DNA from: a virus
Length of the DNA stretch: 64,000 nucleotides
Direction: 5' to 3' (one strand)
Virus record (IMG/VR): IMGVR_UViG_3300005573_000064
Span: 32,001 to 96,000 of that record
The notes beneath the pieces are model-generated. The model made no database searches. It saw only the letters and a program-made list of their open reading frames with translations, and had not been told where the DNA came from. Shown piece after piece: positions 8,201 through 38,816 of this stretch (positions are counted from its first letter, which is position 1; the number at the start of each line of letters is the position of its first letter). Made by a program: the position numbers and the translations under genes.

Positions 8201-10090
8201 TAGATACTGATGTCTGGGTAACGGAGCGTCCTCGACTTGAAGAGTGGACAGGTGACTGGCGAACTGAACTGTTACCGAGCTTACGGTGGACATGGGGCTT
8301 AAGGCGTAATAGTCCATGTCCACGATGTCGTTTATGGTCTTGGAGGTTGAGGAGTTCAGCGCCTGCCATACATACGTCCAGACTGCGGAGTTCATGGGAA
8401 TCAGGAACCATAAGTTCGAGTACTCCGACTTCGAAGCTCCGTATGTTTGGTTTTTTGCAGCGACTCTTAAAGCCTCCGCTTTGGCCATTTTCTCCTTATC
8501 GCTCAATTGATTCGACAGGGTTATGTCGTTTATGGTGAGAGACGTGGCGGACTTGTACCCGCTCCTTAACGCTGCCGACTCATACACTTGGATATCCGCA
8601 GAGGTCAAGGCGTGCAGAACATTTCTATCGGATTGAAACTGAAGGAGTGCGAAGGGCTGACCATTGGCCATAAGTGTAACCACTGGGGATTTATCCACCC
8701 TCTCCCATTTGTAAACCCCACTCCTAAGGTTTTGAAGGGCCTTAAGAACCACGGACGAATCCCTGTCAAGAACGGTCTGATTTCCTCCCGGACCTAGTTG
8801 CACCTTGTAACTCCCGGATGACAGGTTCTGACTGAGCACCGACTTGGACGGTCCCCTCCCCGGCACCGGAGTGGTTGGAACGTTCTGAGTGGGTAGTTGA
8901 GACTTGTCAATCAGGGCTTGTTTTCTTGGGATTGAAAAGACCAGATTGGAGTTGAGGCCTGAGTCCTTCGAGGAAAGGGGTGTCGGGCATCTCCTGCCTT
9001 TTACCACATCCTCGCACCACACCTTGAATAACGGCCAGCAAAAGCTTTCCTGATAGCTGCTATTCATGGGAAGGTAGCTCTTCCAGTCAAAGGGCTCGGC
9101 ATCGATGGAGACGGCAATGCCCCCGGGTATTCCCTCAAGGGATGAGATCACGACATCCCTTATGGCCAGCGCGTCAATATTCCAGGATGAATTCAAAAAC
9201 ACATTAGTGACGGGAAGAAACGGCATCCTGTTATATTGCTGAAGGATGGGAATCACAACCTCGTTATATTGTCTTTCTCCTATTGAGGAGAACTCTATTT
9301 GCACTCTTTGTATGGTGTTGTAGTCTACACTGTTAAGATCACCCTGGGATCTTAGAATGTCAACGGCCACCACCCCGTTCTCGGTGGTTATCGTTATGGA
9401 TTTGGGAGGGATGAGAAGGGTCACGTAGCCCAGCCTGAAATAGTTCATCGGGTCATAAAATCTAGCATCCTCTATCGGCAAGTCTATGGGAAATATCGCG
9501 GGCTGAGCCACCGGGGCTGCCGGGTCATAGGTCATAGTCTTCGGAGTGGTCTTATTCGAAGGGTGCTTATTGGAGGAGTCCATCAGGCTCTTCGTCTTAG
9601 GTGTTGAAGGTGCGGACTTTGAGTTTGAGCCCAGGTATGTTGGAGGCCATACGCCATCCACCGGGGATATGACCACACGGCCGGGCGCCTCCGTTAGAGG
9701 GGGAACCTGTCCTTTAATTGATTGACCGTAGATAGTGATGGCGTAAACACCGCCCGGAATTAGCGGCTCGGTTCGAGTCGGGGAGGACCCCATGAGCTTG
9801 ATGGTGAATACCGAGGACACCTGGGACGGCTGATTCTCGCTCGGCCACCGTCCCGGTGATTTGGACAATATCGCCTCATATTCGGATTTAGTATCGCACC
9901 ATTCGGATATTGAGCCGGGAGGGGAGGGGGAGTTGGCCGGAGTTGCGAATATCGGAGTTTGCGTGGCGTCATTTGATATAAGCGTAATCGGGCCCGAAGC
10001 GTCAATAACCGACTCCGGTTCCGCTCTGTAGAACACTCCGATTCCGTTATTGGAGCTTTGATAGATGCCGTATATTACAGTGTTAGCCAT
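2201..10090 (-). CDS. Giant baseplate hub / tail-associated lysin (2629 aa) with an SLT-like domain and a C-terminal M15-family peptidase
   Basis: SLT-like motifs 'GVILAESDGG...KGLMSV...YDPVANVLAG' (~6490-6800); hub-like 'LRPGVRIHIRVGYGSD...FNGTVSEV'; M15 motifs 'TSGYR..AEQ', 'SGHGFGMAAD', 'DKVHIEL' (~2270-2620); directly upstream of the spike and gp25-like genes. Confidence 0.75.
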   Translation of the reverse strand: MANTVIYGIYQSSNNGIGVFYRAEPESVIDASGPITLISNDATQTPIFATPANSPSPPGSISEWCDTKSEYEAILSKSPGRWPSENQPSQVSSVFTIKLMGSSPTRTEPLIPGGVYAITIYGQSIKGQVPPLTEAPGRVVISPVDGVWPPTYLGSNSKSAPSTPKTKSLMDSSNKHPSNKTTPKTMTYDPAAPVAQPAIFPIDLPIEDARFYDPMNYFRLGYVTLLIPPKSITITTENGVVAVDILRSQGDLNSVDYNTIQRVQIEFSSIGERQYNEVVIPILQQYNRMPFLPVTNVFLNSSWNIDALAIRDVVISSLEGIPGGIAVSIDAEPFDWKSYLPMNSSYQESFCWPLFKVWCEDVVKGRRCPTPLSSKDSGLNSNLVFSIPRKQALIDKSQLPTQNVPTTPVPGRGPSKSVLSQNLSSGSYKVQLGPGGNQTVLDRDSSVVLKALQNLRSGVYKWERVDKSPVVTLMANGQPFALLQFQSDRNVLHALTSADIQVYESAALRSGYKSATSLTINDITLSNQLSDKEKMAKAEALRVAAKNQTYGASKSEYSNLWFLIPMNSAVWTYVWQALNSSTSKTINDIVDMDYYALSPMSTVSSVTVQFASHLSTLQVEDAPLPRHQYLGGGDGFVSIQGILAGERDLELLRAMLDEVRELGRYYRTMEWDIPYPGFFGIKNSLINSLGLLHFIPINFSVSTVDGFPHLYSYQLDIMEYSPTQMRREEFDVMDKLITNWSLSLATGIPQDKLAQVMAENADKPEYLEKVLGNFYRPLTQADPLMQDIHEGSAMKEWRMSLLDARLRMVEMYPDMCLPSKVKLDHWITILRDWAHTGKDPDDPEDRKLLKSMRSVMSVNKHTLENIMMMAPSNDPMGYAEPDFFCVPAVQPTTWASELVDANFGVEVPTEELNRPSAKANSPKGYAHMLLTDSFGIQAIHKAGSHISSSTPTEDSGEAYAQQQLDLSSAYQTILAGKQSSERYSSSHYGNTPVDTEYAERYWGQTLDGLSLLQMEAGRDAPVWNGYPVLGVQTDPSYATSNYNEVIKDHPALASRVNEFLNRKSTPQIYNAVDLDNKIVTPLLHLIKTNPTQWGISQDVANHLDPGLILGVILAESDGGVRSGSGGGGSHKGLMSVSFSQDAPAIARELNQYTGKGPGEPPLGMDSSGPPPDNAYDALRNNNYDPVANVLAGILLIAGKMAAFSNDPWTMQANGVQGYRGINFGAGEMGGAGYTPGVMAFASLWNNVYSKSSPINNPSRTSPSGKKIYEEVISNAGIPKPEAARYLQMLESGQIGLDSIYRYHLCQMETRLFATPKGEKKTSPWNVVLEKYFPGTKKWEPLQGEARLAILPCLPTNIPIYPDNETTTPKSNLVDSSNMHNGYPYPTEPENGNKEWYGYTVYTDITPAAFPDPSKAANIYDYLYSKKPGALNPPAPSTLPMKFRPMFHDFQKKEYIGRLVGAFPSYLVQLVDGGMWVGIERLSDHFYGMSSVISISIVQTRKDPVDVATLAFSNLYNRLNSMAAMIELQKMQDTRTTDTFESWINGIKQFFTSQVTPDLEARREQWAKMLALRPGVRIHIRVGYGSDASQYPVRFNGTVSEVPTASDICEVVALGDGAELVKEASRNDGHWISDPIDSHQVWQNTGLFNFHGIEPRNIIGQLFSPTSSIIETLTHARWMTDNPYGIVDFGNLDFRAYGSYSLGECGVNLYESTQDPNNKSYAAENWYTINGSIAALHGQTLIGIEMESASPWGIAETCRMAVSDFILAVRPFEYRSTLFYGRDWFPYYYKYKYMTENPFQYNVSAPNPQTGSTAAKDYYVDGVDVLQDTDPDYTTLMESKAFSQFHVISSGYNLISSDITASSDNVLTECQSKYIYGGAWGSAMVYADVMHVDDDIYPQVRKGEVIQSGLLSGPGYGWEGLQRAFTWFTPINVVCHAANMYSAMTLRDAVADMYQGYSMIAGDPYMWPWDYVYFMDRGKLMNGMFQVKEVITQLSLETGYITLVSPDCLVSVASGMDTGVWMSLARFGMTVVSARLYLIAIGTILKAFSRWGLESRIVRWITGRPQAIKEAVAGKAQKAFETIAGDPEATPSETGVKPVDDLLNARKTIRDMGQGIKDAINKGADSPTGSKILGLIKKGWEGLSDAAKGIIKSVYRDIERYGLGSEEPRRATTPEGAQANANASTDTNTATSPDTGGGGEAAAPDETILPTEGETAVTQGETAVTQGETAVTQGETAVTEGETAVTEGETAVTQGETAVTQGETAVTEGEKAVTEGIDVGTQVGSDVAEGATGVGIIPLLVQLGALVITSSLGDMIGRYLAAKKCLVIMPLQVNGFEFSAGIEGHLGSVVGDPISLGDAWWASIFSTSYGREEHGIIGEIIPWVMNFVFPGATMQNPLHTNFSSSEDFIKNKLTKPNTDAWNSYMTSLNNRLAASSQGMSNPQSNYDYLFDGGNTSNTSTPSSPAVNNPNMDYSSNKTSSIYRLPVTPGTHPDLADLNPTFATNLSRFIEDMRKQNIIITVTSGYRGWAEQNAIYLSHHENEKVAARPGYSGHGFGMAADLNVSPSSAWSYVHSEARKYNLWFPIASTDKVHIELIPTIAQGFASSVLKTQPNQIGWDTWLATRESQFGR
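3266..3463. repeat. In-frame 21-bp tandem repeat (9 full copies plus a partial), encoding T(E/Q)GETAV
   Basis: Unit tacagc(g/a)gtctcacctt(c/g)ggt read directly from the sequence. Confidence 0.95.
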
Positions 10091-13000
10091 TACTTAAGTA
10101 ATCTCCCGAGAATTAGTTTTTCTATCTTGGCGATATCCGCTTTGGCATCGGTGACTTTCACCGAGACGTGACTCTTGACTTTCGCCTGGGGAATATCCTG
10201 AACATTTTTAACCAGGGATGTAATATCTCCGGCCGTTTCGGAGGATACTGAGATGTGATCTTCAACGTGCGGATCCGGGGGCGGACTTACCGGTTGAACG
10301 GCTCCGTATATTGCGGGGGTCCTTGGAATCATGTTATCAAACGCCATCTTGCCCGAGTACTCGGGGCCTGAGGCCAGGCTCGTAATCTGGCGCGTGTCAT
10401 TTCTTATTATAGCCCGTTTCTCGGTCCCCGAGAGAAACACCCTTCGTTCAGCGGGCATATCACTGCGGCCCGATCTCTTGAACGAGGTCAGGATGGTTCT
10501 CACCTCCTGCAGGTTGACGCCTCTCCCGCGCACCTTCCTGGTGGCCGTGTTGTTTCTTAGCCAGTAGTACAGGTCATTCTCCGAAATATTGAAGCGTTCG
10601 AAGACGGCTTTATGCAGAGTCTCAAGAGAAACCCCCATGATTTCGGAATCTCTTCTGGTTGCGGCCAGCCGTATCTCGCCATCTATCGCGGCCTTGATCG
10701 GGTCGACCCTGGACTTGTCCTTATAATCCCTGAGCTTCCTCCGCTGTTCCTCGGTGTTCATCTCCCCGCTTGTTTCCAAATTTTGGTGAGGCGTAAGGCT
10801 TGAATCGCCTAGAACGTTACCCTCGGTATCCTTTGGAAGCATGGCTTTATATGCGTCCAGCAGGGCCTTGTCCACTTCCTCCTCGCTTACTTTAATTTCA
10901 ACTTTTTTTACCAAAAGGTTTGTAGGTTCGATATTGCGAAGCGACTTGCCAAAATGCCGTTCAAGCTCCGAAAAACCAGGAACGTCAAAAGTAGCGGTCA
11001 AAGTATCAATGGATGTTTTCGCCCAGGGACGATACCTGAGTCTGGCTACGAAATCCAAATATCGCTCCTGTTCAAATTCATCCGGCAGATAATCCTCGTG
11101 CACTATCATTTCGGGGTGTGCTGAAGTGGCGGGGTTTATGTCTCTAAGTTTTGACTGGATAAAATATTCATCCTCCTTGCCAAGGAAGCCCTTTATAAGT
11201 TTAGGATATTTTAGGTATGCGCGTTGCTCGGATGCCGATAGCGAACTTAACTTTCGCGCTATCTCCTCCTCCTCCGTTCTACTCGAGACGGGATCGCTCC
11301 TGTACATGTAGTGCTTTTTAAAGAAATCATACAGCTCCAATTCATATAACGTGGTTTTTCCGTTAACCGCTCTGATTCCCTCGTATGCGTAATCGAATAT
11401 CTGTTCGGTGCTAAGAACTATTCCATCATAGGTATGAAAGGCTTTTCTATATAACAGACTTAGCTTCTTATCCGCCACTATATGGGACCTTGGAATATCC
11501 TTGGGAATATCAACAAGTCCCCTATAGTACGAGGCGATACGCTCCTCTTCACTTAAGCCGGTGTATTTTGCGAAGGCGTCCTCTATGCTCTTGCCGGTAT
11601 TGACCGAATCCTGTGTCAGACTAGGAAGAATCTTTTTCCTGTACATTCCGAGCATGTAGTCGTGGTACTCTAGAGACGCCACTCTCGCATTCATTTTCGC
11701 CCCCCACGCTTTTATCTTGCTAGGTCTTTTAACCTTGACTCTCTTGGGTTTCACAAGAGCCTGGGATTGCTCGGTAATCCTGTTCATCGTATTAACATGT
11801 TCGGATAGATCCTTTTCGATGCTGCTATTCCCTAACCTTAAAGCCATCTTGAAGTTACGCATTACAATCTTGAGAGGGTCGGTGACGGAATGCTCCTTGA
11901 ACGTACCCAGGATTCTAGCCCACAATCTGGAGGCCCAGCCCTTCTCACCCACGCCCCAGTGTGAAGTGGCTATGTAATGGGATATCTCTCTGGCTTTATT
12001 AAGAGAATACCTGGCCCCTCTCGCAAGATGGGAGAATAATCTGGCTGCGGGAGATTTAAGAGAGTCAGACCCCATCCTCGCCTGAGGCGAATTTTTCGGA
12101 AAGAGATAATAGTACCTTTTATGGTAGGGATCTTGAATCTGTGCAAACTGTTTGAGAATATGATCGATGTTATACTGTGCGGTGGATTCTCTGTCAAACG
12201 GCCCATCGGTACCTACGCCCCCTTCCAGATATCCTCTTATCCAACTAGGCAGTCTCTTGTAATTTCCGTAAGTTATTGCATACTCCCTTATGGGATGCGC
12301 TTCGGCAAAATTATCCAGTGTTTCAGTATCCACGGCCCCCCAACGGGCGTTCGCCATATCCACCGCGCCATAACCGGGTACTAGTTTTATTTTTATCCAG
12401 TCTCTATTTCTTGGTTCCCATCCCGTTCTGTTTTCAATATCAATGAGGTTGCTCTCAAGCCTGTCGCTGCTAAAAGTCAGCACCACCATAGGGCCTGTGC
12501 CTTTGGGGTAAGCTGCGTGCACTCGATATTTTTTAGGAAGATAGTTGGGATAACAGCAGAGTATTTTGTCAGCTTCAGACATGCCTTTAGCCATATCTGG
12601 CCACATATAGGCCCCCGGCCCGTAATGGTGAATATAAAAGGTTTCAGGCTTGGCTCCCCACGTAAACACGCCATTCCTTCCGCCAATCGGGATGGCGTGG
12701 AACAAGGCGCCTGACATATTATCCCACCTATCGGAATCACCACCGTATTCGCCCTCCTCCCATCCCCTAACCACTTGTCTAAGATCCCTGTCGGAGGAAT
12801 AGTCCGTAAATAGAAAAGCCTGTACCGAGGACCTGGTAACGGTGGGAGACGCCATGCGATTAACCGTCTTGTAATTAAAAGCGCTCCGAGGAGGAATAAA
12901 GCTCGCTATGGCGAAGGCCATGGCTATTGAGGCGAGAATTGTTAGACCCATGCCTCCTTCCAGACTCTTCATGGCGGCTTTCAAGGCATCCACGCGGGAA

Positions 13001-16000
13001 TGCTCCTTGAAGGTGCCCAGGATTCTGGCCCACAATCTGGAGGCCCACCCCTTCTCGCCAACGCTCCAGTGGCTTATGATGTAGCGACCCAGCTGTCTCG
13101 CCTTGTCAAGCGCGTGAGGAAGGAAGCCTTTTCCAAGAACCCTTCTAGCGATGGGGGATATCGAGGCTCTGGTCAGACTGCGAAATCTGCCAGGGCTCCA
13201 GCGCCTTCTAGCGTGGGAGGGCGGAAGCGAAAGCGGGGATAATGTTTCATCCATATTTAGTTGATCAACTTTGGATTCCTCGTACTTTTCTTCGAAGGGA
13301 TTCTTCTCTTCCTCCTTGGAAGGTATTACAGCCTCTCCTCCGATTATCCTATCTATTTCATCCTGGCTAAACACATATCCCGGTTCCTTTGACAGATAGG
13401 CTTTATATAACTCACTTTCCAGCCCCATTGCATTAATGTTTCTAGAAAAATCTTCATCAGCAGCTTCGGGATCGAGATACTTAGCAAAGTAATGGCGAGG
13501 GAGCGTTGCTTCAAAGCCTATGGCTTTGATATAGCCTTTAAGTCTTTTCGTGGCTTTATCTCTGCGACCTCCCACTTTCCTTGCCAATTCGTTAAGCATA
13601 TCATCATTGGATTTACGGATCGGAGGAGTTAGCTCTCCAGCCTGAGCCCTGTAAAACACTCTTCGCATTATACTGCCTTCAGGACCTGGTCCGAATATCT
13701 CGTACCATATGAGGGACATGAACTCGTTGGCTTTTTGCTCCTCCTCGCCACCAGGATGCACATAACTAGACATGGCACTCATGCGAGCTTTCGTTAGTCT
13801 GCCCTTATCTATAAGATTCCCACGAGAAAATTTCCCAATAGCTATACTAAAGTTGAAGGGGGTTTCGCCAGACATATCGATAGGAATCTCGTGTAAAATA
13901 AGGTCTCTGGCCAAGGAGGAATTTGCATATCTGGAGAAGTGAGTGATTGCTCTGACGCCTTCTATAATGTGTTCTTTATGAAATTTGACCCTCGCCCTTT
14001 GGAGCTCGTCTTGTGGTATTGACCGAAATGTTCTTGTCTGATCCAGCTTAAGATACTCAATGAAGGACAGCGCGTGGCCAAACTCATGAGCCATCGATGC
14101 CGCGATCAGCTCCTCGTCAGACAAATTCCCGAAAGATTTGTGCTGAGATCTCATTAGATCGAAAACGTCACGATTTTCGGCCCATGCGCTCCTATCGTGA
14201 GGTAGCTGAATAAGTCCGTAGTCACATATAGGTGCAAAAGCTGGCTCGGAGAAGGGATACGCACTTATATCCACAAAAGCCAACACCGGGTACTTACGAA
14301 TTATGTGCTTGTACACTCTACTGGCCAGGGGAAGGTCCTTTAGAATTATAAGATTAGTGGTTACGGTGCTATGCTGTCGCAGGTTGACACTCCCGCTTAG
14401 CCAATGCATAAAGTCTTCATCCGAAACCTCGGGCGCAGTCTGGGAGCCGGACCACCCCATCCGATCCAAAGCGTACGCTGCGGCACGCAGCGGCTCAAGT
14501 GTTGAATGCTCCTTGAACGTCCCTAGAATTCTAGCCCATAGTCTGGAGGCCCAGCCCTTCTCACCTACGCCCCAATGGCTTATGACATAGCGACCCAACT
14601 GTCTCGCCTTGTCAAGCGCGTGAGGAATGAAGCCTTTTCCAAGAACCCTTCTATCGATGGGGGATATCGAGGCTCCGGTCAGACTGCGAAATCTGCCAAG
14701 GCTCCAGCGCCTTCTAGCGCGGGAGGAGGAAAGTGAAAGCGGTGGTAATGTTCTAGCCATATTTATAGGTATGGAAGGTAGCGTATTCAGTATTACCAAT
14801 ACTTTTTCCAGGCCGTACTTATCCGATAGCGCCTTAAGTTGGTCACCGGCCTCCAAGGAATTCCTATTTATGCCTCTAATTTCCTCGGCTATCTTTCTTA
14901 CTTCATCCTCACCGTATGCGGAGAAAACATCGTTAAGGTTTGACCTTTGGTACCCTTCGATACGTAACTCGCTCTCACTCTTCTCCATTAGGGGTATTGG
15001 AATAACTCCTCCGGTTATTCTGCTTATTTCATTGGGACTAAATACGAATCCCTCCCCTTTCGCCAAATAGGTTTCGTATAACTTGTTATGCGCTCTTAAA
15101 TTAATGGATAACTGCCTGGGGTTCCTCTCTAAATAACGACCAAAGTATGCATTAAAGTACTCGTCAGGAGTCATTACCCCATAGCCCATGGCTTTGATAA
15201 AGCCTTCAAGTCTTTCCGTGGCTTTGTCTCTGCGACCTCCCGCTGTCCTTGCCAATTCGTTAAACACATCCTCGTTGGATCTGCGGGCCCGAGGAGTTAG
15301 CTTTCCGGCCTGGACCATATGGAATATTCTTCGCATTATACTGCCTTCAGGACCTGGTCCGAACATCTCGTACCACGTGCGGGACATGAACTCGTTGGCT
15401 TTTTGCTCCTCCTCGCCACCAGGATGCACATGAAGACTTATGGCATCCATGCGAGCCTTCGTTAGTCTGTCCTGGTCTATAAGACCCCACAGAGAAACTT
15501 TAGAAACAAAGTTACTCAGATTAAAGGAGAGTCCGTTACGCCTATTGATAGGAATCTCGTATAAAATAAGGTCTTTGGCAAAGGGGGAATTTGCATACCT
15601 GGAGAAGTGAGTAACTATTCTGGTGTTTTCTATAATGTTTTCTATTGCAAATTTGTGCGATACTCTTAGGAACTCGTTTCGTAACGTTGAGTCAAACGAC
15701 TCATATGACGCATTCGGATCAAGCTTAAGGTGCTCCAAGGCGGACAGCGCATGACCAAACTCATGAGCCATCGCTGTCGCGACCACCTCCTCGTCAGACA
15801 AATTCCCGAAAAATTTGTGCTGAGCTCTAATTAGATCGAAAAACTCCCTGTACTTAGGCCACTCGCTCCTATCGTGAGGTAAATACATAATTAGAGAGTA
15901 ATACTGAAATTCAAACCCCGGCTCATCGATGGGGAACCGACCTATATCCACATAACTTAAAATCGGGTACTTACTAATTAAGTGCTTGTACACTCTACTT

Positions 16001-19000
16001 AGCAGAGGCAGATCTTTTAGGATATCAAGATTTTTGATTATGGTGTCACGTTGCCCCTCATTAACAGCCCCGCTTAGCCAATGCATAAAGTCTTCATCCG
16101 AAATCTTAGGCGCAGTCTGGGAGCCGGACCACCCCATCCGATCCAAAGCGTACGCTGCGGCACGCAGCGGCTCAAGCGATGAGTGCTCCTTGAACGTGCC
16201 TAGAATTCTAGCCCACAGTCTGGAGGCCCAGCCCTTCTCGCCAACGCCCCAATGGCTTATGACATAACGACCCAATTGTCTCGCCTTGTCAAGCGCGTGA
16301 GGAATGAAGCCTTTTCCAAGAACCCTTCTAGCGATGGGGGATATCGAGGCTCCGGTCAGACTGCGAAATCTGCCAAGGCTCCAGCGCCTTCTCTCGCGAG
16401 ATGGCGGCATCAGGAATGCGGAGGACCCTATGATTCCGTTTGAGGGCATCCCATTCGGCTCAGCATTCGCCATTACCGTTTTGACTGCGTTGGGCGCCAT
16501 CCCGGGATCAGGCCCAGGTCCGAAATTTTGCTTCAGATAGAGATCATACGCCTTGAATGCATCTTCCTCCGCCTGTGCCGAAAGGAGGCCTTCCTTAACC
16601 AGAAAGATATACTCTTCGGGTGTTGTATTAAGCCCCTGGGCTTCGAAGTACTTTCGCAGCCTTAGGTCGCTTTCCCTCTGAAGCCGTCTGGCCTTTTCCA
16701 GGGTTCGAGCCAGCCTCTCATCACCGGACATTCTAATCGGGGGAGTTAGCTTTCCGGCCTGAGCCATGTCGAACATTCTTCGCATTACACTGCCTTCAGG
16801 ACCCGGGCCACGTAGCTTGTACCACATGCGGAACATGTACTCATTGGCTATTTGCTCGTCCTCCTGCGTGGTGTGCATCCAGCGGTTCCAGGCATAGATG
16901 CGGGCTTCGGTAAGCTTGGTGGTGTCTAGGAATTTCGCAGAACGGAATGTATTAAGTCTGTCAATAGCTGACTGATCCTCCCAAGTAGGGAGTTGTGATA
17001 AAATAAGATCCCTGTACAAAGAGGACTTCGCATATCGAGATCCCGTAATGGCTCTTCTAATGCTTTCCGTAATTGGTGTTGTCCAGTACATCCTTTCCGT
17101 CTTTGACACCTGCATGCTCATGGCATTACTTAACGATACTCTCCGATTGACACCGAAAGTCTTATACGCATCCAAAGCGTGCCCGAATTCATGGGCTAAT
17201 ACCACTGCAGCCGTCTCCTCGTCAGATAACTTTCCTAAGGCTTTATATTGCATTTTGGTCGCTTTCAGAAGTTTATCTCTTACATCTCCCCTAACTATGG
17301 AGAATAGGTGAACGATCCCGTACTCGGAGTTCGGATCAAAACGCGGAGATTGAGACGTATCAGTGCTTATTTTCACAAAAGCCAGAGTCGGGCTTCTAAG
17401 AATTACGTGCTTATACATGCTCCTGACAAGGTTAAGATCCTTTAGGAGATTAAGATTTTCAATTATGGTGTCACGTTGCCGCTCATCGATAATCCCGCTT
17501 AGCGAACTTATAAAAGCTTCGTCCGAAACCTCAGGTGCAGGCTGGAAGTTGAACCCCATCTGAGTCAAAGCGTACACTGCGGCACGCAGTGGCTCAAGCG
17601 ATGAGTGCTCCTTGAACGTGCCCAGGATTCTGGCCCACAATCTGGAGGCCCACCCCTTCTCACCCACGCCCCAATGGCTGATGACATAACGACCCAATTG
17701 TCTCGCCTTGTCAAGCGCGTGAGGAAGGAAGCCTTTTCCAAGAACCCTTCTGGCGATGGGGGATATCGAGGCTCCGGTCAGACTACGAAATCTGCCAAGG
17801 CTCCAGCGCCTTCTCTCGCGAGATGGCGGCATCAGTAATGCGGAGGACCATGTGATTCCCTTTGAGGGCATGCCGTTCGGCTCAGCGTCCGCCATTACCG
17901 TTTTGGCTGCGGTGGGCGCCATCCCGGAATCAAATCCGCGTTCGGAATTTTGCTTCAGATAGAGATCATACGCCTCGGATGCGGCCTCCTCCGCCCCTGG
18001 CGGGAGGTGCCCTTCACTAACAATATTGACAAAACCTTCGGGTGTGATATTAAGTTTATGAGCTTCAAAGAACTTTCGCAGCTTCCGGTCGCTTTCCTTC
18101 CTAAGCCGTCTGGCCTTTTCCAGGGTTCGAGCCAGCCTCTCATCACCGGACATTCTAATCGGGGGAGTTAGCTTTCCGGCCTGAGCCATGTCGAACATTC
18201 TTCGCATTACACTGCCTTCAGGACCCGGGCCACGTAGCTTGTACATCATGAGGAACATGTACTCGTTAGCTATCTGCTCGTCCTCCTGCGTGGTGTGCAT
18301 CCAGCGGTTCCACGCATCGATGCGGGCTTCGGTAAGCTTAGCGGTATCTAGGAATCTACTGCTGTAAAATTGCTCAAGGCCACCAACAGCGGAAGTCCTT
18401 GCACGGGTAGGTAGTTGTGATAGAATCAGGTCTCTGTGCAGAGAGGACTTCGCATATCGGGACTCCATCATGGCACTTCGAATACTTTCAGTGATCGGTG
18501 TTGTCCAGTCCGCCTTCACTTTTAGTGCCTTCTTAATTCCCCTAAGGTACCTTAACGACAGACTCTGATTGACACCAAAAGTCCTATACGCATCCAAAGC
18601 GTGTCCAAACTCATGAGCCATCGCTGCTGCAATCATCTCCTCGTCCGAAACCGCTCCCAGGGCTTTGTTCTGTGTTCTGAGTATCCTCAGAAGCAGGTCC
18701 TTATTCCTGCCACTGGCCATGGAGAGAATGTTAATGGTCCCGTATTCGGAGCCTGCATTAAAACTCGGAGGGCGGGACGTATCAGCGCTTATTTTCACAA
18801 AAGCCAGAATCGGGTTTTCAGTAATTATGTGCTTGTACATCCTCCCGACCAGAGGAAGGTTTCTTAGGAGATTAAGATTTTCGATTATGGTTTCACGCTG
18901 TCGCCAATTGATAATCCCGCTTAGCGAACTCAGAAAGGCTTCGTCCGAAACCTCGGGCGCAGTCTGGGAGCCGGACCACCCCATCTGAGTCGCAGCATAC

Positions 19001-22000
19001 GCTGCGGCACGCAGCGGCTCAAGTGACGAATGCTCCTTGAATGTACCTAGTAGCGTAGCCAGCAGTCGGGAGGCCGGCCCTTTCTCTCCAACGCCCCAGT
19101 GCTTGACAAGATAGGATGAAAAGACTCTCGCTTTCCGTAGCGCCCATCCCGTTCTTATATCGGAAGGAATTGCGGCCACGACTCCCGGGCCTCCCTTTCT
19201 CTTAAAGAGATTAAGAAAGCTTTTTAGCGGATTCCACGCGAGTTTTCCTATCCCGCCAGTATACTCGACAGCCCATTGACTAGACCTATAGTAAACTCCG
19301 AGTGAGTCCAGAATCTTCTTTTCCATCTGCACAAGGTCAGTCTCGTTCCTTGTAAGAAAGGCGTAATGGGATGTTATGGATCTTGGATTCTCAAGGGATT
19401 TTTTAAAGGCTCTGATAACTCTGCCATAATCGCCACTCTGTACGCTCTCCAAGCCCTTCTGTATTCTTCTCTCTATTAAGTCTTTATTTGTAAGTGTTAT
19501 ATTGCCTCTGTAAGCCATGGACATTAGAGTCTCGTAGGCAAACGCATCGGCATAAACTTCGGCCGGATTTTCTCTGTAGATAATGTTTCCGTATAGGAGT
19601 TTAAGATACGGATTGACGGATGACCTGCGGAACCTTAACTTGCTTGCCGCCCTTCTCCTCCATACTCGGTTTCTAATATCCTCAAACGCATCCTCGCTGA
19701 ATACGCCCATTTCCGAGCTGGCTATCTTGTTTCCAACATCCAGCCATCTGTGAGCATGCCCCATCTCATGAGCGAAAATGAACTTGGATAAGACCTCAGG
19801 ATCATTGGGATCAAACCCGGCACGCCCAACGAAATACCTTAAGGGAATCTGGCTGGGATCTGTGAAACTAGCCAGGGACCCTCCGGGGGGGAACACCACC
19901 TTATAGTCGCTAGGCGATTCGAAATTGCCAAAGAACATACCGGGAATTCCCGCTATAAGGAATTCGACATCAAAGTGGATGGGTATGGTTGACAGCCTGG
20001 GATCGAGCGCGATGGCTTCCTCGTACACATCCTGCAGATAATCAGGCAGGGATTGCAGCGTTTGCTGGTAGGCTCTCCTTTGAGTCTCTGTCAGTTCGGG
20101 TTTTGCGTAATCGGACCTGGTGAGCTTTCCTTCGTATATCCTTTTGGCCACGCCAAGAGCCGCTATTCGGGCCGCTGCGGCCACGGAATGGGATTTGTAC
20201 GTGCCAAGAGCGTTAGCCTGAGCCCGGGAGTGGGGACCTTTCTCTCCGACTCCCGCGTGGGAGTAGGCGATTTGGGCGGAGTAATCGTCCTTTCTCATAT
20301 GCCTGTCAATCCACCTTCCCACCGGAACCAGTATTCCCTTCATTACGTAGAAGGACGCGATATCGATTACAGGGTCTATTATCTCCTGAATAGGCAATGA
20401 CACGCTGCGCAAGGTGTCTCTTCCCAAGGCCTGCTCGATATTGCCGGTTATTTTGCCAGAGAGGCTTTGAAGAAGACTGACCCCTCTTTTAACGCTGGCG
20501 CTTTTCTCGGAAGCCCACGCGCTTCCGAAGTCGGAGCCAAGACTCCCATAGAACTCGGCCATCCCGGTTAGAAGCTTTGCCGCCCCCTCCCTTACCGAAG
20601 GATAGCGAACGAGCTGATGACTAAGGTACTGGGAGACGGGATAGGAAATGGCCTCCTTGGCCACCCAAGGCAGGGATGAGACAAACTGCCCCAGTGTTTG
20701 GTCGCCTGCCGCGTAGCCTAAAAGCGAACGTATGGCCTTTCCGGTTCCGAAGGATATGAAGAGTCGGGGGTAGCTTCCGGAGACATGAGCGAGCCCGGCT
20801 ATGATTTTACCGGCCGTAGGCTCGTCCTCCGACAATTTGGCCGCCTGCAGCCACCCTCGTCTGAACAGAGAAGCCGCATGCAAAAGCGTCCAGTGGCCGG
20901 CCAAAAACATAGCGCCTTTCATAAGAGGATTATTTGAGTAATTGTCGTCCTCCACCGGGGAGCCGGGGCCGCTGCCTAGATTGCCGACCCAGTTGGCCTC
21001 GTCCCAGCTGTACGCTCTGTTATTGGTTGCCGACCAGCGCTGCGCGATTCGGTCCTCGGCCTCCCGTCTCGCCTCGTCCCTTCTCTTCTCAGATTGATTT
21101 ATGACATGATATAATCCGTAAGCGGCCCCTATCACCCCGAGAGCCGCAAGTCCGTAGCCTACGGGCTTTTTATTCTTGTCGAACCAGTCAAACAGGGAAT
21201 CCCACATCGAACCGGTGGGGGGCTCGCCCCCTCCTCCGATCCCGCCTCCGGCTTCGGGCGGCACACCGGTACCTCCGCCTGCACTCCCGGCCCCGGCCAC
21301 TCCTCCGGTGCTTCCTTCGGCCGCGCGTACGCTCTCGCTTTCCCTTAGTTTCCTTTGCCGTCTGCGTTCTCGCGCTTCATCCCGCTGTTTCAGCAGCTTA
21401 TCCAGTTTCTGCTTTCTAGCCTTTTCCCACTGTTCGTTCTGACGCCTCCATTCCTCCTCTTGCTGACGCTGTCGCTCCTCCTTCGCTTGTTGCTCCCGTA
21501 TCCTAGTTTGCTCCTTCGCTTTCGCCTCTTCCTCTATGCGCTGCAGGATCCTTTCGCTTCGGTTTCTTTCGATCTCCTGTCTGGCCTCCCACTCCGACAT
21601 GGCCTTCTCGTACTCACGCTTGTACTCCGGGTCGGAAGCCAGCCTCTCCTCGTGAATCTTTCTTTGCTCCTCTAACCGCTCTCGGAACGACCTGTCCTGC
21701 TCCTCCTGTAATTTTCTGAACTCCTCAAGCCTCTCGAATGTTGAAGGGGATTGTGGGGACTCGGAGTTCAGCTTCGCGTAAATCTCCGCCCACCCGGTAG
21801 CACGCTTGGAGGTCCTTCTCCACATCGCCTCCACCTTACCGGGAATAGGAGTTGAGGCGCCATGCTTTTTCTTCCACCATTCCGCCATCCGGTTGACATA
21901 TGTTTCCTCGGGCTCGATAAGACCGGTCATGCGGCCTGTTAGAAGAGAGTGGTGGAACGCTATGGTCCTTGGATTGCGCATGGACCTTTCAAAGGCCTCC

Positions 22001-24078
22001 ATGGCCTCATCATATCCACCTTGGTGAATGATATCCATAGCGGACTCTATCTTCTTCTTCAGGAGGGTCCCACTGGCGAGCGGCAAATCGCCACTGTAAG
22101 CGAGGGACATTAGGACCTCATAAGCAAACTTGTCCGCATAAACCTCGGCAGGGTTCTCCCTGTAGAGGATGTTTCCGTATATGTTTCTGAGGTACGGGTT
22201 GGAGGATAACGTCTTGATCTCCTCGCTCTCTTTTCCCCACACCGTATTTATAATGTCCTCGAACGCCTTCCCGCTAAATACGTTTTTCTCCGCGTGGTAC
22301 TCCTTTTTCCCTATATCCAGCAGTCTGTGTGCGTGTCCCATTTCATGAGTGAAAATAAACCTGGATATGGTTTCGTCATTAGGATCAAGTCCGGCACGTT
22401 CAATGAGACGTTTCAGGGGAAGTATGCGAGGGTCATAAATACTCGCCAGACGGTCCCCCTTTCTTCCTAGCGGATATACCAACCTGTAATTCTCTATGGA
22501 GTTGGTCTTGCTGACGAATATACCAGGGATATTTTTCTTGGCCAATTCAGGATCGAATACCACAGGTATGGACACCAGTCTTGGATCTAACGCTATGGCC
22601 CTCGCGTACGCGCCTTTCAGATACTTAGGCAAGGACTGCAGCGTTCTCTGATACAACTCTTCCTGCTCCGCTGTCAGTACCGGTCTTGTGTAACCGCTCG
22701 CGGTTAGCTTGCCTTCATATATCCTTTTGGCCACGCCAAGCGCGGCTATTCGGGCCGCTGCGGCCACGGAATGGGACTTGTACGTGCCAAGCGCGTCCGC
22801 CTGAGCCCGGGAGTAAGGGCCTTTCTCCCCGACTCCCGCATGGGAGTAGGCGTAAGCCTGCGATGCCGAGCTGGAGCCGCTCATAAGCCTTTTCTTTCTC
22901 TCGGCATCGCCTCTTCTTCCGGATAAGATATGATACAACCCGTAGCCCGCTCCGAGAATTCCCGCAGCGGCAAGGCCGTAACCTAAAAGACTTTTTACTT
23001 CGCCAAGTCCGCTGGAACTCAGGCTGCGCGCCAAACCGGAGGCCTGATTGTCGTCCTCGCTTTCGGCCTCAACCCCAAGCGTGCTTTTCACCGCCTTTTC
23101 CACTACGGTTTTCGCTTCAGCCGCTCGCGATTCTTCAGCCACCCTTTCAGTCGCTGTCGGAGCTTCGAATGCGCTTGCGCTTTTTGCCACAGGTTCACCC
23201 GCAGGCCTCGCTTCGGACCGTTCCAATCGACTTGAAAAATCACCCGATTTCTCCGTCTCTTTTCCGGGACTTACCTCCTCAGGCTTACCTACGGACTCAC
23301 GCACATACGGTTCAAGTTCGGAGATGCGTTCTTGGAGATTCGCCATCATTTTGAGACGGACGTCATCCAGAACCTGATCACCAAAATTCAGATTGCCGAG
23401 TTCCCTGTGGGATTGCTCCATCCATCCCTGAAACTCGGATACCCGTCTTCTTAGCTCCTCGTTCCCCGGCTCACCGTTATACTGTCGTACCCACTTGAGA
23501 AACTCAGATGTTCGGACGCCAAGCTCTCCCACAACTTGGGCGAAGAGAACGGACGGACGCTCCCGACCGGGGCCCAGACTGCGGGACACCTCTTCGGCTC
23601 CCTTCCGGGCGGCCTTTAACGGATCAACCTGTGAGTGGGACTTGTACGTACCCAGCTCCTCGGCCTGAGCTCTGGAGTAAGGGCCTTTTTCTCCAACCCC
23701 TGCATGAGAGTAGGCGTAGGCCTGAGACGCCAGACCGGAGCTTTCGCTAATATCAGTAAACAGACTCCCTCTCACCGGGACGGGCACCGAATCCAACCCT
23801 CCGCTCCATACTCTATCGTCAGGAATCAGGAATGGGGAAAGAGCCAGCCTGTTTCTTTCCGGTTCGTAAAAGTGGGAGCCAAGACTTTTGGAACCAAGTC
23901 CTGAAACTAGAAAAGGCGCAGGAGCCCCGCTGTCATCGGGGGATGCCGAACGCATCGGGGAGGCCACATTAAAGGCGCCAAGATGCGCCCCCGAAAGTTG
24001 CGAACCTGTCTCAAGGTACGGCCTTGTCTCCCAATATACGCCTCGTCCTGCTATGCCTCTATCATTAACAATTGACAT
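10090..24078 (-). CDS. Giant modular polyprotein (4662 aa) with six HExxH zincin (ImmA/IrrE-like) domains separated by a recurring 25-aa motif; probably virion-packaged
   Basis: HEMGH at 22333-22347 and 19756-19770; HEFGH at 18601-18615, 17179-17193, 15751-15765 and 14074-14088. Each is followed by an E-x-x-A-[DN]-x-[FY] motif. Located in the tail/baseplate operon. Confidence 0.8.
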   Translation of the reverse strand: MSIVNDRGIAGRGVYWETRPYLETGSQLSGAHLGAFNVASPMRSASPDDSGAPAPFLVSGLGSKSLGSHFYEPERNRLALSPFLIPDDRVWSGGLDSVPVPVRGSLFTDISESSGLASQAYAYSHAGVGEKGPYSRAQAEELGTYKSHSQVDPLKAARKGAEEVSRSLGPGRERPSVLFAQVVGELGVRTSEFLKWVRQYNGEPGNEELRRRVSEFQGWMEQSHRELGNLNFGDQVLDDVRLKMMANLQERISELEPYVRESVGKPEEVSPGKETEKSGDFSSRLERSEARPAGEPVAKSASAFEAPTATERVAEESRAAEAKTVVEKAVKSTLGVEAESEDDNQASGLARSLSSSGLGEVKSLLGYGLAAAGILGAGYGLYHILSGRRGDAERKKRLMSGSSSASQAYAYSHAGVGEKGPYSRAQADALGTYKSHSVAAAARIAALGVAKRIYEGKLTASGYTRPVLTAEQEELYQRTLQSLPKYLKGAYARAIALDPRLVSIPVVFDPELAKKNIPGIFVSKTNSIENYRLVYPLGRKGDRLASIYDPRILPLKRLIERAGLDPNDETISRFIFTHEMGHAHRLLDIGKKEYHAEKNVFSGKAFEDIINTVWGKESEEIKTLSSNPYLRNIYGNILYRENPAEVYADKFAYEVLMSLAYSGDLPLASGTLLKKKIESAMDIIHQGGYDEAMEAFERSMRNPRTIAFHHSLLTGRMTGLIEPEETYVNRMAEWWKKKHGASTPIPGKVEAMWRRTSKRATGWAEIYAKLNSESPQSPSTFERLEEFRKLQEEQDRSFRERLEEQRKIHEERLASDPEYKREYEKAMSEWEARQEIERNRSERILQRIEEEAKAKEQTRIREQQAKEERQRQQEEEWRRQNEQWEKARKQKLDKLLKQRDEARERRRQRKLRESESVRAAEGSTGGVAGAGSAGGGTGVPPEAGGGIGGGGEPPTGSMWDSLFDWFDKNKKPVGYGLAALGVIGAAYGLYHVINQSEKRRDEARREAEDRIAQRWSATNNRAYSWDEANWVGNLGSGPGSPVEDDNYSNNPLMKGAMFLAGHWTLLHAASLFRRGWLQAAKLSEDEPTAGKIIAGLAHVSGSYPRLFISFGTGKAIRSLLGYAAGDQTLGQFVSSLPWVAKEAISYPVSQYLSHQLVRYPSVREGAAKLLTGMAEFYGSLGSDFGSAWASEKSASVKRGVSLLQSLSGKITGNIEQALGRDTLRSVSLPIQEIIDPVIDIASFYVMKGILVPVGRWIDRHMRKDDYSAQIAYSHAGVGEKGPHSRAQANALGTYKSHSVAAAARIAALGVAKRIYEGKLTRSDYAKPELTETQRRAYQQTLQSLPDYLQDVYEEAIALDPRLSTIPIHFDVEFLIAGIPGMFFGNFESPSDYKVVFPPGGSLASFTDPSQIPLRYFVGRAGFDPNDPEVLSKFIFAHEMGHAHRWLDVGNKIASSEMGVFSEDAFEDIRNRVWRRRAASKLRFRRSSVNPYLKLLYGNIIYRENPAEVYADAFAYETLMSMAYRGNITLTNKDLIERRIQKGLESVQSGDYGRVIRAFKKSLENPRSITSHYAFLTRNETDLVQMEKKILDSLGVYYRSSQWAVEYTGGIGKLAWNPLKSFLNLFKRKGGPGVVAAIPSDIRTGWALRKARVFSSYLVKHWGVGEKGPASRLLATLLGTFKEHSSLEPLRAAAYAATQMGWSGSQTAPEVSDEAFLSSLSGIINWRQRETIIENLNLLRNLPLVGRMYKHIITENPILAFVKISADTSRPPSFNAGSEYGTINILSMASGRNKDLLLRILRTQNKALGAVSDEEMIAAAMAHEFGHALDAYRTFGVNQSLSLRYLRGIKKALKVKADWTTPITESIRSAMMESRYAKSSLHRDLILSQLPTRARTSAVGGLEQFYSSRFLDTAKLTEARIDAWNRWMHTTQEDEQIANEYMFLMMYKLRGPGPEGSVMRRMFDMAQAGKLTPPIRMSGDERLARTLEKARRLRKESDRKLRKFFEAHKLNITPEGFVNIVSEGHLPPGAEEAASEAYDLYLKQNSERGFDSGMAPTAAKTVMADAEPNGMPSKGITWSSALLMPPSRERRRWSLGRFRSLTGASISPIARRVLGKGFLPHALDKARQLGRYVISHWGVGEKGWASRLWARILGTFKEHSSLEPLRAAVYALTQMGFNFQPAPEVSDEAFISSLSGIIDERQRDTIIENLNLLKDLNLVRSMYKHVILRSPTLAFVKISTDTSQSPRFDPNSEYGIVHLFSIVRGDVRDKLLKATKMQYKALGKLSDEETAAVVLAHEFGHALDAYKTFGVNRRVSLSNAMSMQVSKTERMYWTTPITESIRRAITGSRYAKSSLYRDLILSQLPTWEDQSAIDRLNTFRSAKFLDTTKLTEARIYAWNRWMHTTQEDEQIANEYMFRMWYKLRGPGPEGSVMRRMFDMAQAGKLTPPIRMSGDERLARTLEKARRLQRESDLRLRKYFEAQGLNTTPEEYIFLVKEGLLSAQAEEDAFKAYDLYLKQNFGPGPDPGMAPNAVKTVMANAEPNGMPSNGIIGSSAFLMPPSRERRRWSLGRFRSLTGASISPIARRVLGKGFIPHALDKARQLGRYVISHWGVGEKGWASRLWARILGTFKEHSSLEPLRAAAYALDRMGWSGSQTAPKISDEDFMHWLSGAVNEGQRDTIIKNLDILKDLPLLSRVYKHLISKYPILSYVDIGRFPIDEPGFEFQYYSLIMYLPHDRSEWPKYREFFDLIRAQHKFFGNLSDEEVVATAMAHEFGHALSALEHLKLDPNASYESFDSTLRNEFLRVSHKFAIENIIENTRIVTHFSRYANSPFAKDLILYEIPINRRNGLSFNLSNFVSKVSLWGLIDQDRLTKARMDAISLHVHPGGEEEQKANEFMSRTWYEMFGPGPEGSIMRRIFHMVQAGKLTPRARRSNEDVFNELARTAGGRRDKATERLEGFIKAMGYGVMTPDEYFNAYFGRYLERNPRQLSINLRAHNKLYETYLAKGEGFVFSPNEISRITGGVIPIPLMEKSESELRIEGYQRSNLNDVFSAYGEDEVRKIAEEIRGINRNSLEAGDQLKALSDKYGLEKVLVILNTLPSIPINMARTLPPLSLSSSRARRRWSLGRFRSLTGASISPIDRRVLGKGFIPHALDKARQLGRYVISHWGVGEKGWASRLWARILGTFKEHSTLEPLRAAAYALDRMGWSGSQTAPEVSDEDFMHWLSGSVNLRQHSTVTTNLIILKDLPLASRVYKHIIRKYPVLAFVDISAYPFSEPAFAPICDYGLIQLPHDRSAWAENRDVFDLMRSQHKSFGNLSDEELIAASMAHEFGHALSFIEYLKLDQTRTFRSIPQDELQRARVKFHKEHIIEGVRAITHFSRYANSSLARDLILHEIPIDMSGETPFNFSIAIGKFSRGNLIDKGRLTKARMSAMSSYVHPGGEEEQKANEFMSLIWYEIFGPGPEGSIMRRVFYRAQAGELTPPIRKSNDDMLNELARKVGGRRDKATKRLKGYIKAIGFEATLPRHYFAKYLDPEAADEDFSRNINAMGLESELYKAYLSKEPGYVFSQDEIDRIIGGEAVIPSKEEEKNPFEEKYEESKVDQLNMDETLSPLSLPPSHARRRWSPGRFRSLTRASISPIARRVLGKGFLPHALDKARQLGRYIISHWSVGEKGWASRLWARILGTFKEHSRVDALKAAMKSLEGGMGLTILASIAMAFAIASFIPPRSAFNYKTVNRMASPTVTRSSVQAFLFTDYSSDRDLRQVVRGWEEGEYGGDSDRWDNMSGALFHAIPIGGRNGVFTWGAKPETFYIHHYGPGAYMWPDMAKGMSEADKILCCYPNYLPKKYRVHAAYPKGTGPMVVLTFSSDRLESNLIDIENRTGWEPRNRDWIKIKLVPGYGAVDMANARWGAVDTETLDNFAEAHPIREYAITYGNYKRLPSWIRGYLEGGVGTDGPFDRESTAQYNIDHILKQFAQIQDPYHKRYYYLFPKNSPQARMGSDSLKSPAARLFSHLARGARYSLNKAREISHYIATSHWGVGEKGWASRLWARILGTFKEHSVTDPLKIVMRNFKMALRLGNSSIEKDLSEHVNTMNRITEQSQALVKPKRVKVKRPSKIKAWGAKMNARVASLEYHDYMLGMYRKKILPSLTQDSVNTGKSIEDAFAKYTGLSEEERIASYYRGLVDIPKDIPRSHIVADKKLSLLYRKAFHTYDGIVLSTEQIFDYAYEGIRAVNGKTTLYELELYDFFKKHYMYRSDPVSSRTEEEEIARKLSSLSASEQRAYLKYPKLIKGFLGKEDEYFIQSKLRDINPATSAHPEMIVHEDYLPDEFEQERYLDFVARLRYRPWAKTSIDTLTATFDVPGFSELERHFGKSLRNIEPTNLLVKKVEIKVSEEEVDKALLDAYKAMLPKDTEGNVLGDSSLTPHQNLETSGEMNTEEQRRKLRDYKDKSRVDPIKAAIDGEIRLAATRRDSEIMGVSLETLHKAVFERFNISENDLYYWLRNNTATRKVRGRGVNLQEVRTILTSFKRSGRSDMPAERRVFLSGTEKRAIIRNDTRQITSLASGPEYSGKMAFDNMIPRTPAIYGAVQPVSPPPDPHVEDHISVSSETAGDITSLVKNVQDIPQAKVKSHVSVKVTDAKADIAKIEKLILGRLLK
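12997..17814 (-). repeat. Four dispersed near-identical 213-bp direct repeats (12997-13209, 14503-14715, 16180-16392, 17602-17814) forming module junctions of the giant protein
   Basis: Each encodes RRRWS(L/P)GRFRSLT...ALDKARQLGRY.ISHW.VGEKGWASRLWARILGTFKEHS; equal length confirmed by counting. Confidence 0.9.
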
Positions 24079-29849: not shown

Positions 29850-29876
29850 GAGGGCCTCCGAGGACTTGTTTCTTAT

Positions 29877-29884
29877 ATTATAGC
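29877..29884 (-). promoter_or_regulatory. Putative promoter -10 element (GCTATAAT)
   Basis: About 28 nt upstream of ATG 29849 and immediately downstream of a terminator hairpin. Confidence 0.6.
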
Positions 29885-29891
29885 CCCCGAC

Positions 29892-29929: not shown

Positions 29930-29937
29930 CCAAATAC

Positions 29938-38814: not shown

Positions 38815-38816
38815 TA

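Follow-up and report, generated by a model that had tools for sequence, protein, structure and literature searches.

A conserved junction motif bounds the payload cassettes of a 4662-amino-acid protein encoded among the tail genes of an uncultured jumbo phage from hot springs

The virus record IMGVR_UViG_3300005573_000064 of IMG/VR contains, in the 64,000-nucleotide stretch analysed here (positions 32,001 to 96,000 of the record; hereafter the window), a very long open reading frame (ORF) designated P0001. It extends from 10090 to 24078 on the (-) strand, like all features described below, whose positions are window coordinates; it starts with ATG and is open over 4662 codons. By family profile and synteny, P0001 is an eightfold enlarged member of a small and hitherto undescribed family of proteins in 0305phi8-36-like jumbo myoviruses; its gene belongs to the tail block of an uncultured jumbo phage from hot springs. 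Between fixed N- and C-terminal domains the protein carries a series of payload domains, and a conserved peptide motif recurs at their junctions. The family is classed as probable tail-borne cargo proteins of the polyvalent type to which a defined junction motif has been added. Most likely, P0001 resides inside the tail, exits via the tube during infection as a tape measure protein (TMP) does, and carries effector cargo.

An earlier note on this DNA, made from the sequence alone, had described nine copies of a tag of 25 amino acids (aa) in P0001. The pattern H[AW][GS]VGEKG[PW].SR reproduces the coordinates of all nine exactly. Copy 1 (type 1) begins at residue 125 (23632..23706), followed by copy 2 at residue 413 (22768..22842), copy 3 at 1274 (20185..20259), copy 4 at 1660 (19027..19101), copy 5 at 2135 (17602..17676), copy 6 at 2609 (16180..16254), copy 7 at 3168 (14503..14577), copy 8 at 3670 (12997..13071) and copy 9 at 4040 (11887..11961). 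Their spacing is irregular and ranges from 288 to 861 aa. Each copy was found by pattern and by profile. The profile, A1, was composed of the nine 52-aa motif windows and searched against 1.84 billion representative proteins at E<=1e-3; it matches P0001 in 10 stretches with an E-value of 7.8e-250, which excludes chance. The conserved peptide is thus real, but 25 aa is too short: the element comprises ~40-50 aa with the consensus [AS]Y.SH.G.GE.GP.SR.....LGT[YF]...S.VD.LKA. When the nine inter-motif segments were compared all against all, only their first 31-48 residues proved to be common to all of them. A tenth copy does exist at window position 10788 (10681..10788, from residue 4431). It scores only 3.2 bits (i-E 2.5) against the nine-copy profile and had been called degenerate, but it is a second conserved variant (type 2, H[QH]N[LI]ExSG[ED]; here HQNLETSGE...SRVDPIKAA). 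The same variant is present in the relatives P0002 (residue 1089) and P0006 (residue 96), and the tenth copy lies where homologs have their last motif. Altogether, 13 family proteins contain 29 type-1 and 3 type-2 copies.

The motif is confined to this gene. A 94-aa junction query yielded nine matches in the whole 117.5-kb contig, all of them within the P0001 ORF, and a six-frame profile scan of the window agrees that it is absent from every other gene. None of the nine 52-aa windows matched a Pfam family at E<=10 (0/9), no PDB sequence was matched at E<=10, and a search of ten relatives against PHROGs and Pfam gave no PHROG match for the motif. The earlier note did not recognise the motif as a described family, and neither for the motif nor for the protein family was a description found in Pfam, PHROGs, PDB or the literature searched, which included few subscription-journal papers. 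A weak profile alignment with the astacin zinc site (E 1.5) was judged to be due to chance, because no HExxH lies ahead of the motif.

The A1 search returned 13 matches: P0001, 10 true relatives of 310-1318 aa and two low-complexity repeat proteins, which were judged false on reading. Two further relatives, P0017 (792 aa) and P0018 (580 aa), were obtained by a word-based profile search, so that 12 relatives of P0001 are known in all. They share with P0001 the N-terminal domain, the motif and a C-terminal domain ending in ..SHVN....D...D...LD..L...L; P0002, P0003, P0017 and P0018 have the same N-terminus as P0001. The family scaffold consists of the N-terminal domain (~80-120 aa) and the C-terminal domain (~230 aa) with 0 to ~8 cassettes between them, and every junction has one motif copy. 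The relatives carry 1, 2, 3 or 4 copies. Four proteins of 310-385 aa have the architecture N-m-C (m, motif). A hydrophobic helical domain (Hyd) is inserted in P0003/P0014, P0005, P0006 and P0018 (N-m-Hyd-m-C), and P0017 has a zincin in addition (N-m-Hyd-m-zincin-m-C). P0009 (zincin-m-C) and P0004 (zincin-m-x-m-C, N-terminus cut) also contain zincins, whereas P0002 (N-m-Hyd-m-X+ART-m-Y-m-C) carries an ADP-ribosyltransferase (ART). This ART (PF03496, residues 720-841, 30.5 bits vs a cut-off of 23.4) is located between two motif copies and stops 18 aa short of the next one. In total, a zincin cassette is present in three relatives and an ART in one. The cassette kinds of the family are the hydrophobic helical domain, the zincin-like HExxH+E domain, the ADP-ribosyltransferase, a copy of a neighbouring orphan gene and unknown domains. 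PHROGs and Pfam searches of ten relatives returned nothing except the ART in P0002, and the relatives bear neither names nor families save one uninformative source label on P0004.

These architectures bear on the proposal of a tag that precedes variable payloads in an expandable gene. In homologs, the motif stands before the hydrophobic helical domain, the ART-containing stretch and the C-terminal domain; within P0001 it precedes at least five unrelated sequence kinds and is, hence, separable from the payload. This differs from what an integral element of one repeated fold, without variable payloads in homologs, would look like. The gene is expandable, as relatives have 1-4 copies and a syntenic ortholog has 580 aa vs 4662 aa in P0001.

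The syntenic ortholog (P0018) is encoded at locus L004, where the gene order is 321, 2604, 580 (family member), 2783, 126 and 190 aa. The 321-, 2604-, 580-, 2783- and 190-aa genes correspond to the window genes for 314, 1946, 4662, 2629 (hub) and 177 aa. The 580-aa protein aligns with three separate parts of P0001, residues 2-185, 1083-1352 and 4442-4660. Because of this synteny and the three-part alignment, P0001 can be regarded as the ortholog of the 580-aa protein plus ~4000 residues of added cassettes. At a further locus, L005, a 2810-aa gene homologous to the 2604-aa gene of L004 lies before a family member that is cut at the contig end. Upstream giant and family gene are, therefore, paired in 3/3 loci, and the hub gene is directly downstream in 2/2 loci with that side visible. 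Genomic context covers 3 of 14 family members (window, L004, L005). Both loci came from a scan of viral contigs with alignment A2 only; scans of viral contigs with A1, the 1946-aa neighbour, P0004 and P0005 confirmed no locus, nor did scans of metagenome contigs (A3, P0004) and genome contigs (A3). Megablast of the structural block gave no match.

In P0001 itself, the N-terminal family domain comprises residues 1-124 (23707..24078); the alignment of residues 2-185 with residues 3-142 of the L004 ortholog has an E-value of 2.8e-12. The C-terminal family domain (residues 4431-4662, 10093..10788) scores 265 bits against the family C-terminus profile and aligns with residues 338-575 of the ortholog. 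A third family part, the hydrophobic helical core domain (residues 1083-1262, 20293..20832; aligned with residues 139-412 of the ortholog, E 1.8e-33), lies at the end of module 2. The payload of module 1 consists of a charged stretch and a hydrophobic helix. A further internal repeat is common to modules 1 and 2. It consists of a hydrophobic helix of Gly-zipper-like character (GYGLAA.G..GA.YGLYH.I) with a basic stretch behind it and lies at residues ~370-400 (~22880-22970) and ~1005-1035 (~20980-21070), with 39% identity over 56 aa. One payload per tag, as envisaged in the earlier note, holds as a cassette scheme but not for module 2, where a zincin, a charged stretch, a Gly-rich stretch and the hydrophobic core domain all follow a single motif. 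With at least 10 segments of 5 or more unrelated classes, P0001 belongs to the many-domain polyvalent type.

Six payloads had been interpreted as zincins, and all 6/6 modules concerned contain an HExxH (residues 578, 1437, 1822, 2296, 2772 and 3331), each followed 67-119 residues on by ExxA[ND]x[FYM]. Two modules form group A. Zincin A1 (21979..22767) has HEMGH at residue 578 (22333-22347) and E..AD.F at residue 645; A2 (19399..20184; HEMGH at residue 1437, 19756-19770) is 52% identical to it. Group B, a distant kin of A, comprises four modules with 41-72% mutual identity, all with HEFGH: B1 (18199..18981; residue 1822, 18601-18615), B2 (16774..17556; residue 2296, 17179-17193), B3 (15319..16131; residue 2772, 15751-15765) and B4 (13654..14457; residue 3331, 14074-14088). 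Pfam returned only marginal M48/M43 matches for these modules. The pattern HExxH...ExxAN.F presumably resembles that of the ImmA/IrrE-type (M78) family; Pfam M78 was not matched at E<=1 by whole P0001 or by single modules. A word-based search with zincin module 5 found no relative of 260-830 aa. In an AlphaFold2 (AF2) model of module 5, which contains B2, the core (pLDDT 60-89) has three short strands and then the HExxH helix. Its fold comparison gave weak zincin-like matches with Z-scores of only 3.8-5.1, among them YbeY, SPRTN, the ArdC metalloprotease domain, selecase, abylysin, Wss1 and catalytic domains of M1 aminopeptidases. On this pattern and model, the HExxH payloads are likely zincins.

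The payload of module 8 (12073..12936) is, as the earlier note had seen, a copy of a stand-alone gene. It shares 56% identity over 288 aa (E 8e-117) with the 307-aa product of a free-standing paralog at 37300..38223, which has no motif. The similarity includes the hydrophobic leader, represented in module 8 by a hydrophobic 19-mer (residues 3710-3728). A word-based search of 5.8e9 proteins revealed no further relative of this 307-aa orphan. The gene was considered as a second chaperone gene and dismissed, as it resembles none of gp143, gp144 and the 188-aa chaperone-like gene. For the payload of module 9 (10789..11886), Pfam and segment comparison recognised no family.

The motif peptide itself is under strong selection. 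Pairwise comparison of copies 5-9 over the 25 motif codons revealed 0-1 nonsynonymous and 5-11 synonymous differences. In 25-codon windows along the alignment of modules 4-7, the ratio of nonsynonymous to synonymous divergence (dN/dS) was 0.049 (dN 0.05, dS 1.0) and 0.038 (dS 0.45) over the motif, 0.22 over the HExxH window and 0.19-0.93 elsewhere. Since dN/dS is this low despite high synonymous divergence, selection maintains the peptide, and this purifying selection is far stronger than that on the payloads. The surrounding DNA has a different history. The 45 codons upstream of copies 5-8 (RRWSLGRFRSL...GRYVIS; 17677-17811, 16255-16389, 14578-14712 and 13072-13206) are 93-100% identical in DNA, which is above the motif itself (82-93%), and identity among the blocks that follow copies 4, 6 and 7 downstream is 76-100%. 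Copy 9 has the motif alone in common with copies 5-8. The near-identity of the flanking blocks indicates recent gene conversion or duplication of the junctions, and DNA homology at the junctions may help cassettes to move.

Structure prediction suggests that the motif is located outside the payload folds. The AF2 model of P0018 (16 alignment rows, mean pLDDT 56.6) contains a helical bundle at residues 115-320 (pLDDT 70-84), the counterpart of the hydrophobic core domain of P0001, and a small helical unit of the C-terminal domain (74-83). Both motifs of P0018 remain below 50, are not packed on the modelled domains and alternate between loop and helix (loop, short helix, loop, helix start). The model of module 5 with both flanking motifs (8 rows, mean pLDDT 55.1) has its core at residues 61-270; the motifs, again below 50, are not packed on this core. 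Accordingly modelled, the motif is a flexible element. Foldseek found no match at E<=0.001 in PDB for either model or in BFVD for the module 5 model; its weak rows include a T7 ejectosome chain and proteins labelled as tape measure, to which no weight was given. A search of the ESM Atlas for P0018 provided no lead (best feature score 0.76, TM <0.3). A complex prediction with three copies of the 52-aa window reached a score of 0.01 (mark 0.42) and counts neither way.

What does the motif do? The favoured, though tentative, answer is that it might act as a docking or loading clamp that is read in trans by a conserved tail-internal partner. The tail-internal location and the ejection of P0001 are deduced from gene order, as the gene lies between the tail-chaperone and gp145-like genes and the hub gene. 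Inside a growing tube, a chain would have to be tethered once for every domain inserted. With a clamp at each cassette, a string of arbitrary domains would stay attached and stretched out while the tube assembled around it, and could later be ejected through that tube. Recognition in trans by something common to all these phages is favoured because the motif is long, has conserved Gly, His, Glu, Ser, Arg, Thr and Asp residues, is retained even in the smallest members and follows the rule of one per cassette. A clamp would account for the increase of the motif number by one with each cassette, for the retention of one motif in the smallest members, for a long Gly/polar-rich motif outside any payload fold and for its independence of zincins. 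Several points weigh against this interpretation. The location in the tail is deduced only from gene order, and the clamp partner is hypothetical. The conserved His, Glu, Ser, Arg, Thr, Asp and Gly resemble a catalytic or ligand-binding loop more than a hydrophobic docking helix. Both AF2 models are weak, so that 'flexible' may mean merely 'not modelled'. Moreover, 0305phi8-36 and the Moorella phage MTATph1 possess chaperone, gp145 and hub, but neither the motif nor the family C-terminal domain was found in the regions read; the partner cannot be a part that requires the motif in all these phages.

The principal rival is a processing site: the motif could be cut by the zincins of P0001 or by another phage or host protease, which would free the cassettes before or after ejection. 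This is possible but rather doubtful, also in the form in which cleavage is combined with docking as in T4 internal proteins. In its favour, the motif is present at every domain junction, zincins are the commonest payload (10 cassettes in 4/13 proteins), and wherever the N-terminal side of a zincin cassette is visible, a motif comes immediately before it. The V-G-E of the motif resembles, as we assume, the [LI]xE sites of the T4 prohead protease. For polyvalent proteins, zincin metallopeptidases (MPTases) have been argued to separate the units, without a cleavage site being named in the main text (Iyer et al., 2017, PMC5512222). But 9/13 family proteins have no HExxH, and a profile of the six zincin cores detected nothing in the L004 record (79% complete) or the L005 record (27% complete). 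This argues against the motif being merely a substrate of P0001's own zincins and leaves zincin-mediated release improbable as a general mechanism. In addition, a constrained element of 40-50 aa far exceeds known protease sites, six diverged zincins are more than self-processing would need, and in the (weak) module 5 model the flanking motifs lie outside the zincin cleft. A role in DNA binding is improbable. Here, the motif would be a unit like the helix-hairpin-helix (HhH; helix, G-V-G hairpin, helix) that binds to the DNA backbone, and the protein would hold the leading DNA end or pilot it through the tail. The predicted secondary structure (helix, Gly-rich loop, helix) and the conserved Ser-Arg and Lys would suit this, and the hairpin G-h-G...A is taken by us to resemble the HhH consensus. 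Yet 0/9 windows matched Pfam HhH at E<=10, no PDB sequence was matched, G-h-G is followed by a spacing that exceeds that of HhH by one residue, and the models are of low confidence.

In another rival view, P0001 would serve as the tape measure, and the motif would be a structural repeat recurring periodically along this ruler. The position directly upstream of the hub gene, the slot of gp146 in 0305phi8-36, and the helix-rich models speak for it. It is nevertheless highly improbable: orthologs range from 310 to 4662 aa, unlike a ruler of fixed length, the copies are irregularly spaced as described above, and much of the length is made up of zincin-type and other globular-looking domains. No similarity to gp146 and no Pfam or PHROG match to a TMP was found, tblastn with both halves of P0001 gave no match in 50,697 phage records, and the other two giants of the slot (1990 and 1946 aa) vary less in length. 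The least probable explanation is a footprint of recombination, in which the motif DNA provides homology for the insertion, duplication or swap of cassettes and the peptide is a tolerated linker. The near-identical blocks flanking the junctions are what it would predict. Against it stand the motif's dN/dS with almost no nonsynonymous divergence and the conservation of the peptide in distant relatives that otherwise share little. Exchange via motif DNA is possible, yet it cannot be the sole role. A more far-reaching reading would see in the motif a natural plug-and-play adaptor: whatever domain it flanks, the tail lumen of these phages would take it up and the host would receive it by ejection, and the family would be an open effector cassette rack. 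This is conceivable, though doubtful. A bolder variant would make the ~45-aa element itself a minimal self-cleaving or partner-activated release module.

In T4 (capsid targeting sequence, prohead-protease sites) and phiKZ (inner-body processing), short peptides target proteins into the particle and/or are cut off, and the T4-type signals are common to several separate head proteins. The P0001 motif is much longer and occurs in one tail-module gene only. As it was found in no other gene of the contig, it is not a signal common to separate virion proteins, and a packaging tag of the T4 type is unlikely. The comparison with head-internal proteins of T4 and phiKZ, drawn in the earlier note, fits less well than a tail-internal protein, since the gene lies between chaperone and hub.

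Polyvalent proteins combine 2-15 distinct domains in a single polypeptide and are rich in zincin MPTases and ARTs; their presumed fate is entry into the host together with the DNA, followed by processing into units (Iyer et al., 2017, PMC5512222). Like these, P0001 is one very long chain with many unrelated domains. The zincin-like HExxH+E domain is its commonest module, present in multiple copies, and an ART cassette occurs in its relative P0002. Its gene is situated among co-directional late/virion genes, and delivery with the DNA is presumed. Unlike them, P0001 has a fixed N- and C-terminal scaffold and a single conserved junction motif; the main text of PMC5512222 contains neither 'linker' nor a junction motif. 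P0001 occupies a tail slot by the hub, whereas head-packaged examples are discussed there, and it has six MPTase-like domains vs the one to five stated (PMC5512222). No Pfam LPD or other polyvalent-associated family was matched in P0001. A junction signal would be new for this group: none is described in the main text of PMC5512222 or in the titles and abstracts of the papers found on cleavage sites in virion polyvalent proteins.

With TMPs, represented by gp146 of 0305phi8-36 (by position) and the TMP-related effectors of contractile injection systems (CIS) of the Sle1 type (PMC13277306), P0001 shares the gene position between chaperone and hub and a hydrophobic helical domain. Modular, exchangeable functional parts and presumed ejection through the tube are further similarities (PMC13277306). 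P0001 differs from TMPs in that it lacks sequence similarity to gp146 or any TMP family, shows a 15-fold length range among its relatives and carries multiple cassettes, each bounded by a motif. Cargo signals of extracellular CIS (eCIS) such as PVC and Afp are likewise short, probably unstructured peptides before a payload, for which loading into a contractile tail tube has been proposed (PMC9054023; 10.1101/2023.11.13.566157). But they are N-terminal on separate cargo proteins, whereas the P0001 motif is internal, repeated in one chain and strongly conserved. Furthermore, eCIS signals use a dedicated AAA ATPase (PMC11495950). If the adaptor idea were true, the motif would be a phage counterpart of the eCIS cargo signals with a defined, transferable sequence. 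If transferable, it could serve as a tool for loading cargo into phage tails. The natural variants with 0 to 8 cassettes are a series with which loading and release of heterologous domains in a contractile tail can be probed.

P0001 was also found in other public data. Contigs from two further runs (X1 and X2, both labelled hot springs metagenome) match the ORF at >=99% identity. They cover 30/30 (X1) and 26/30 (X2) bins of the ORF without joints or indels. Among the 16 contig pieces shown of 55, one spans a motif copy (X1 record 3, copy 1), and the remaining ones end at or before motif copies. Every distinct module is independently supported by other runs; because the pieces shown mostly fail to bridge motif copies, the module order rests on the original assembly alone. 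The only public runs found to hold the window bear the hot-spring label, and the cultured phage nearest to it in capsid protein has the thermophile Moorella as its host. A thermophilic Firmicute is the probable host of the phage described here.

In its capsid protein, the window shares 35-38% identity with Moorella phage MTATph1 and Bacillus phage 0305phi8-36. Matches to these phages define the genes for terminase (58136-59725), portal (54588-56363), protease/scaffold (52256-53875), capsid (49745-50902), sheath (42816-44528), tube (42007-42801, plus a paralog) and a chaperone-like protein (38260-38826). Together with the hub gene, they are all on the same strand, which bears out the virion operon proposed earlier. 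The P0001 gene is one of four genes between chaperone and hub and lies directly upstream of the hub. A gp145-like gene for 1990 aa (31268-37240) and the conserved 1946-aa partner of the family gene (24093..29933; 35% identity to the L004 2604-aa gene) are located upstream of P0001. The partner has a faint PHROG match to a DNA polymerase exonuclease subunit (E 0.006) and no Pfam family. Downstream, the 2629-aa baseplate-hub/lysin gene (2201..10090) encodes a homolog of gp147, which in 0305phi8-36 is the baseplate hub with lysin domains (PMC2147016). In that phage, gp146, encoded directly upstream of gp147, was called the tape measure by position and tail length, and both gp145 and gp146 are virion proteins according to mass spectrometry (PMC2147016). 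The slot adjoining the hub is variable across the phages compared. It is occupied by the gene for gp146 (2537 aa) in 0305phi8-36, by a 1310-aa gene, an insertion sequence and a 314-aa gene in the Moorella phage and by the 314-, 1946- and 4662-aa genes in the window. In 0305phi8-36-like phages, this variable slot beside the hub can thus accommodate probable cargo carriers and not a ruler alone.

The last ~40 residues of giant proteins encoded between chaperone and hub look alike by eye, with an alternating hydrophobic strand, D..D and an amphipathic helix. This applies to the 1990-, 1946- and 4662-aa proteins of the window (31268-31400, 24093-24200 and 10093-10200) and, elsewhere, to gp145, gp146, Moorella CDS0026 and CDS0031, the L004 2604-aa and the L005 2810-aa genes. 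These ends may be a common hub-attachment tail. A tail shared by all slot giants was not adopted, as it was seen by eye only and was not detected by the profile of the family C-terminal domain. A 508-aa gene in the tail block (38817-40343) has a signal-peptide-like start (MKLAWLIILLAIFPGASRAE); the compared phages contain no relative of it, and neither Pfam nor PHROGs assigns it to a family. The wall-degrading domains of the hub proteins differ: VanY is present in the window (2201-10090), SLT and NlpC/P60 in L004 (11676-20027), and transglycosylase, NLP and M23 domains in 0305phi8-36 (PMC2147016). On a conserved hub, these domains have been swapped.

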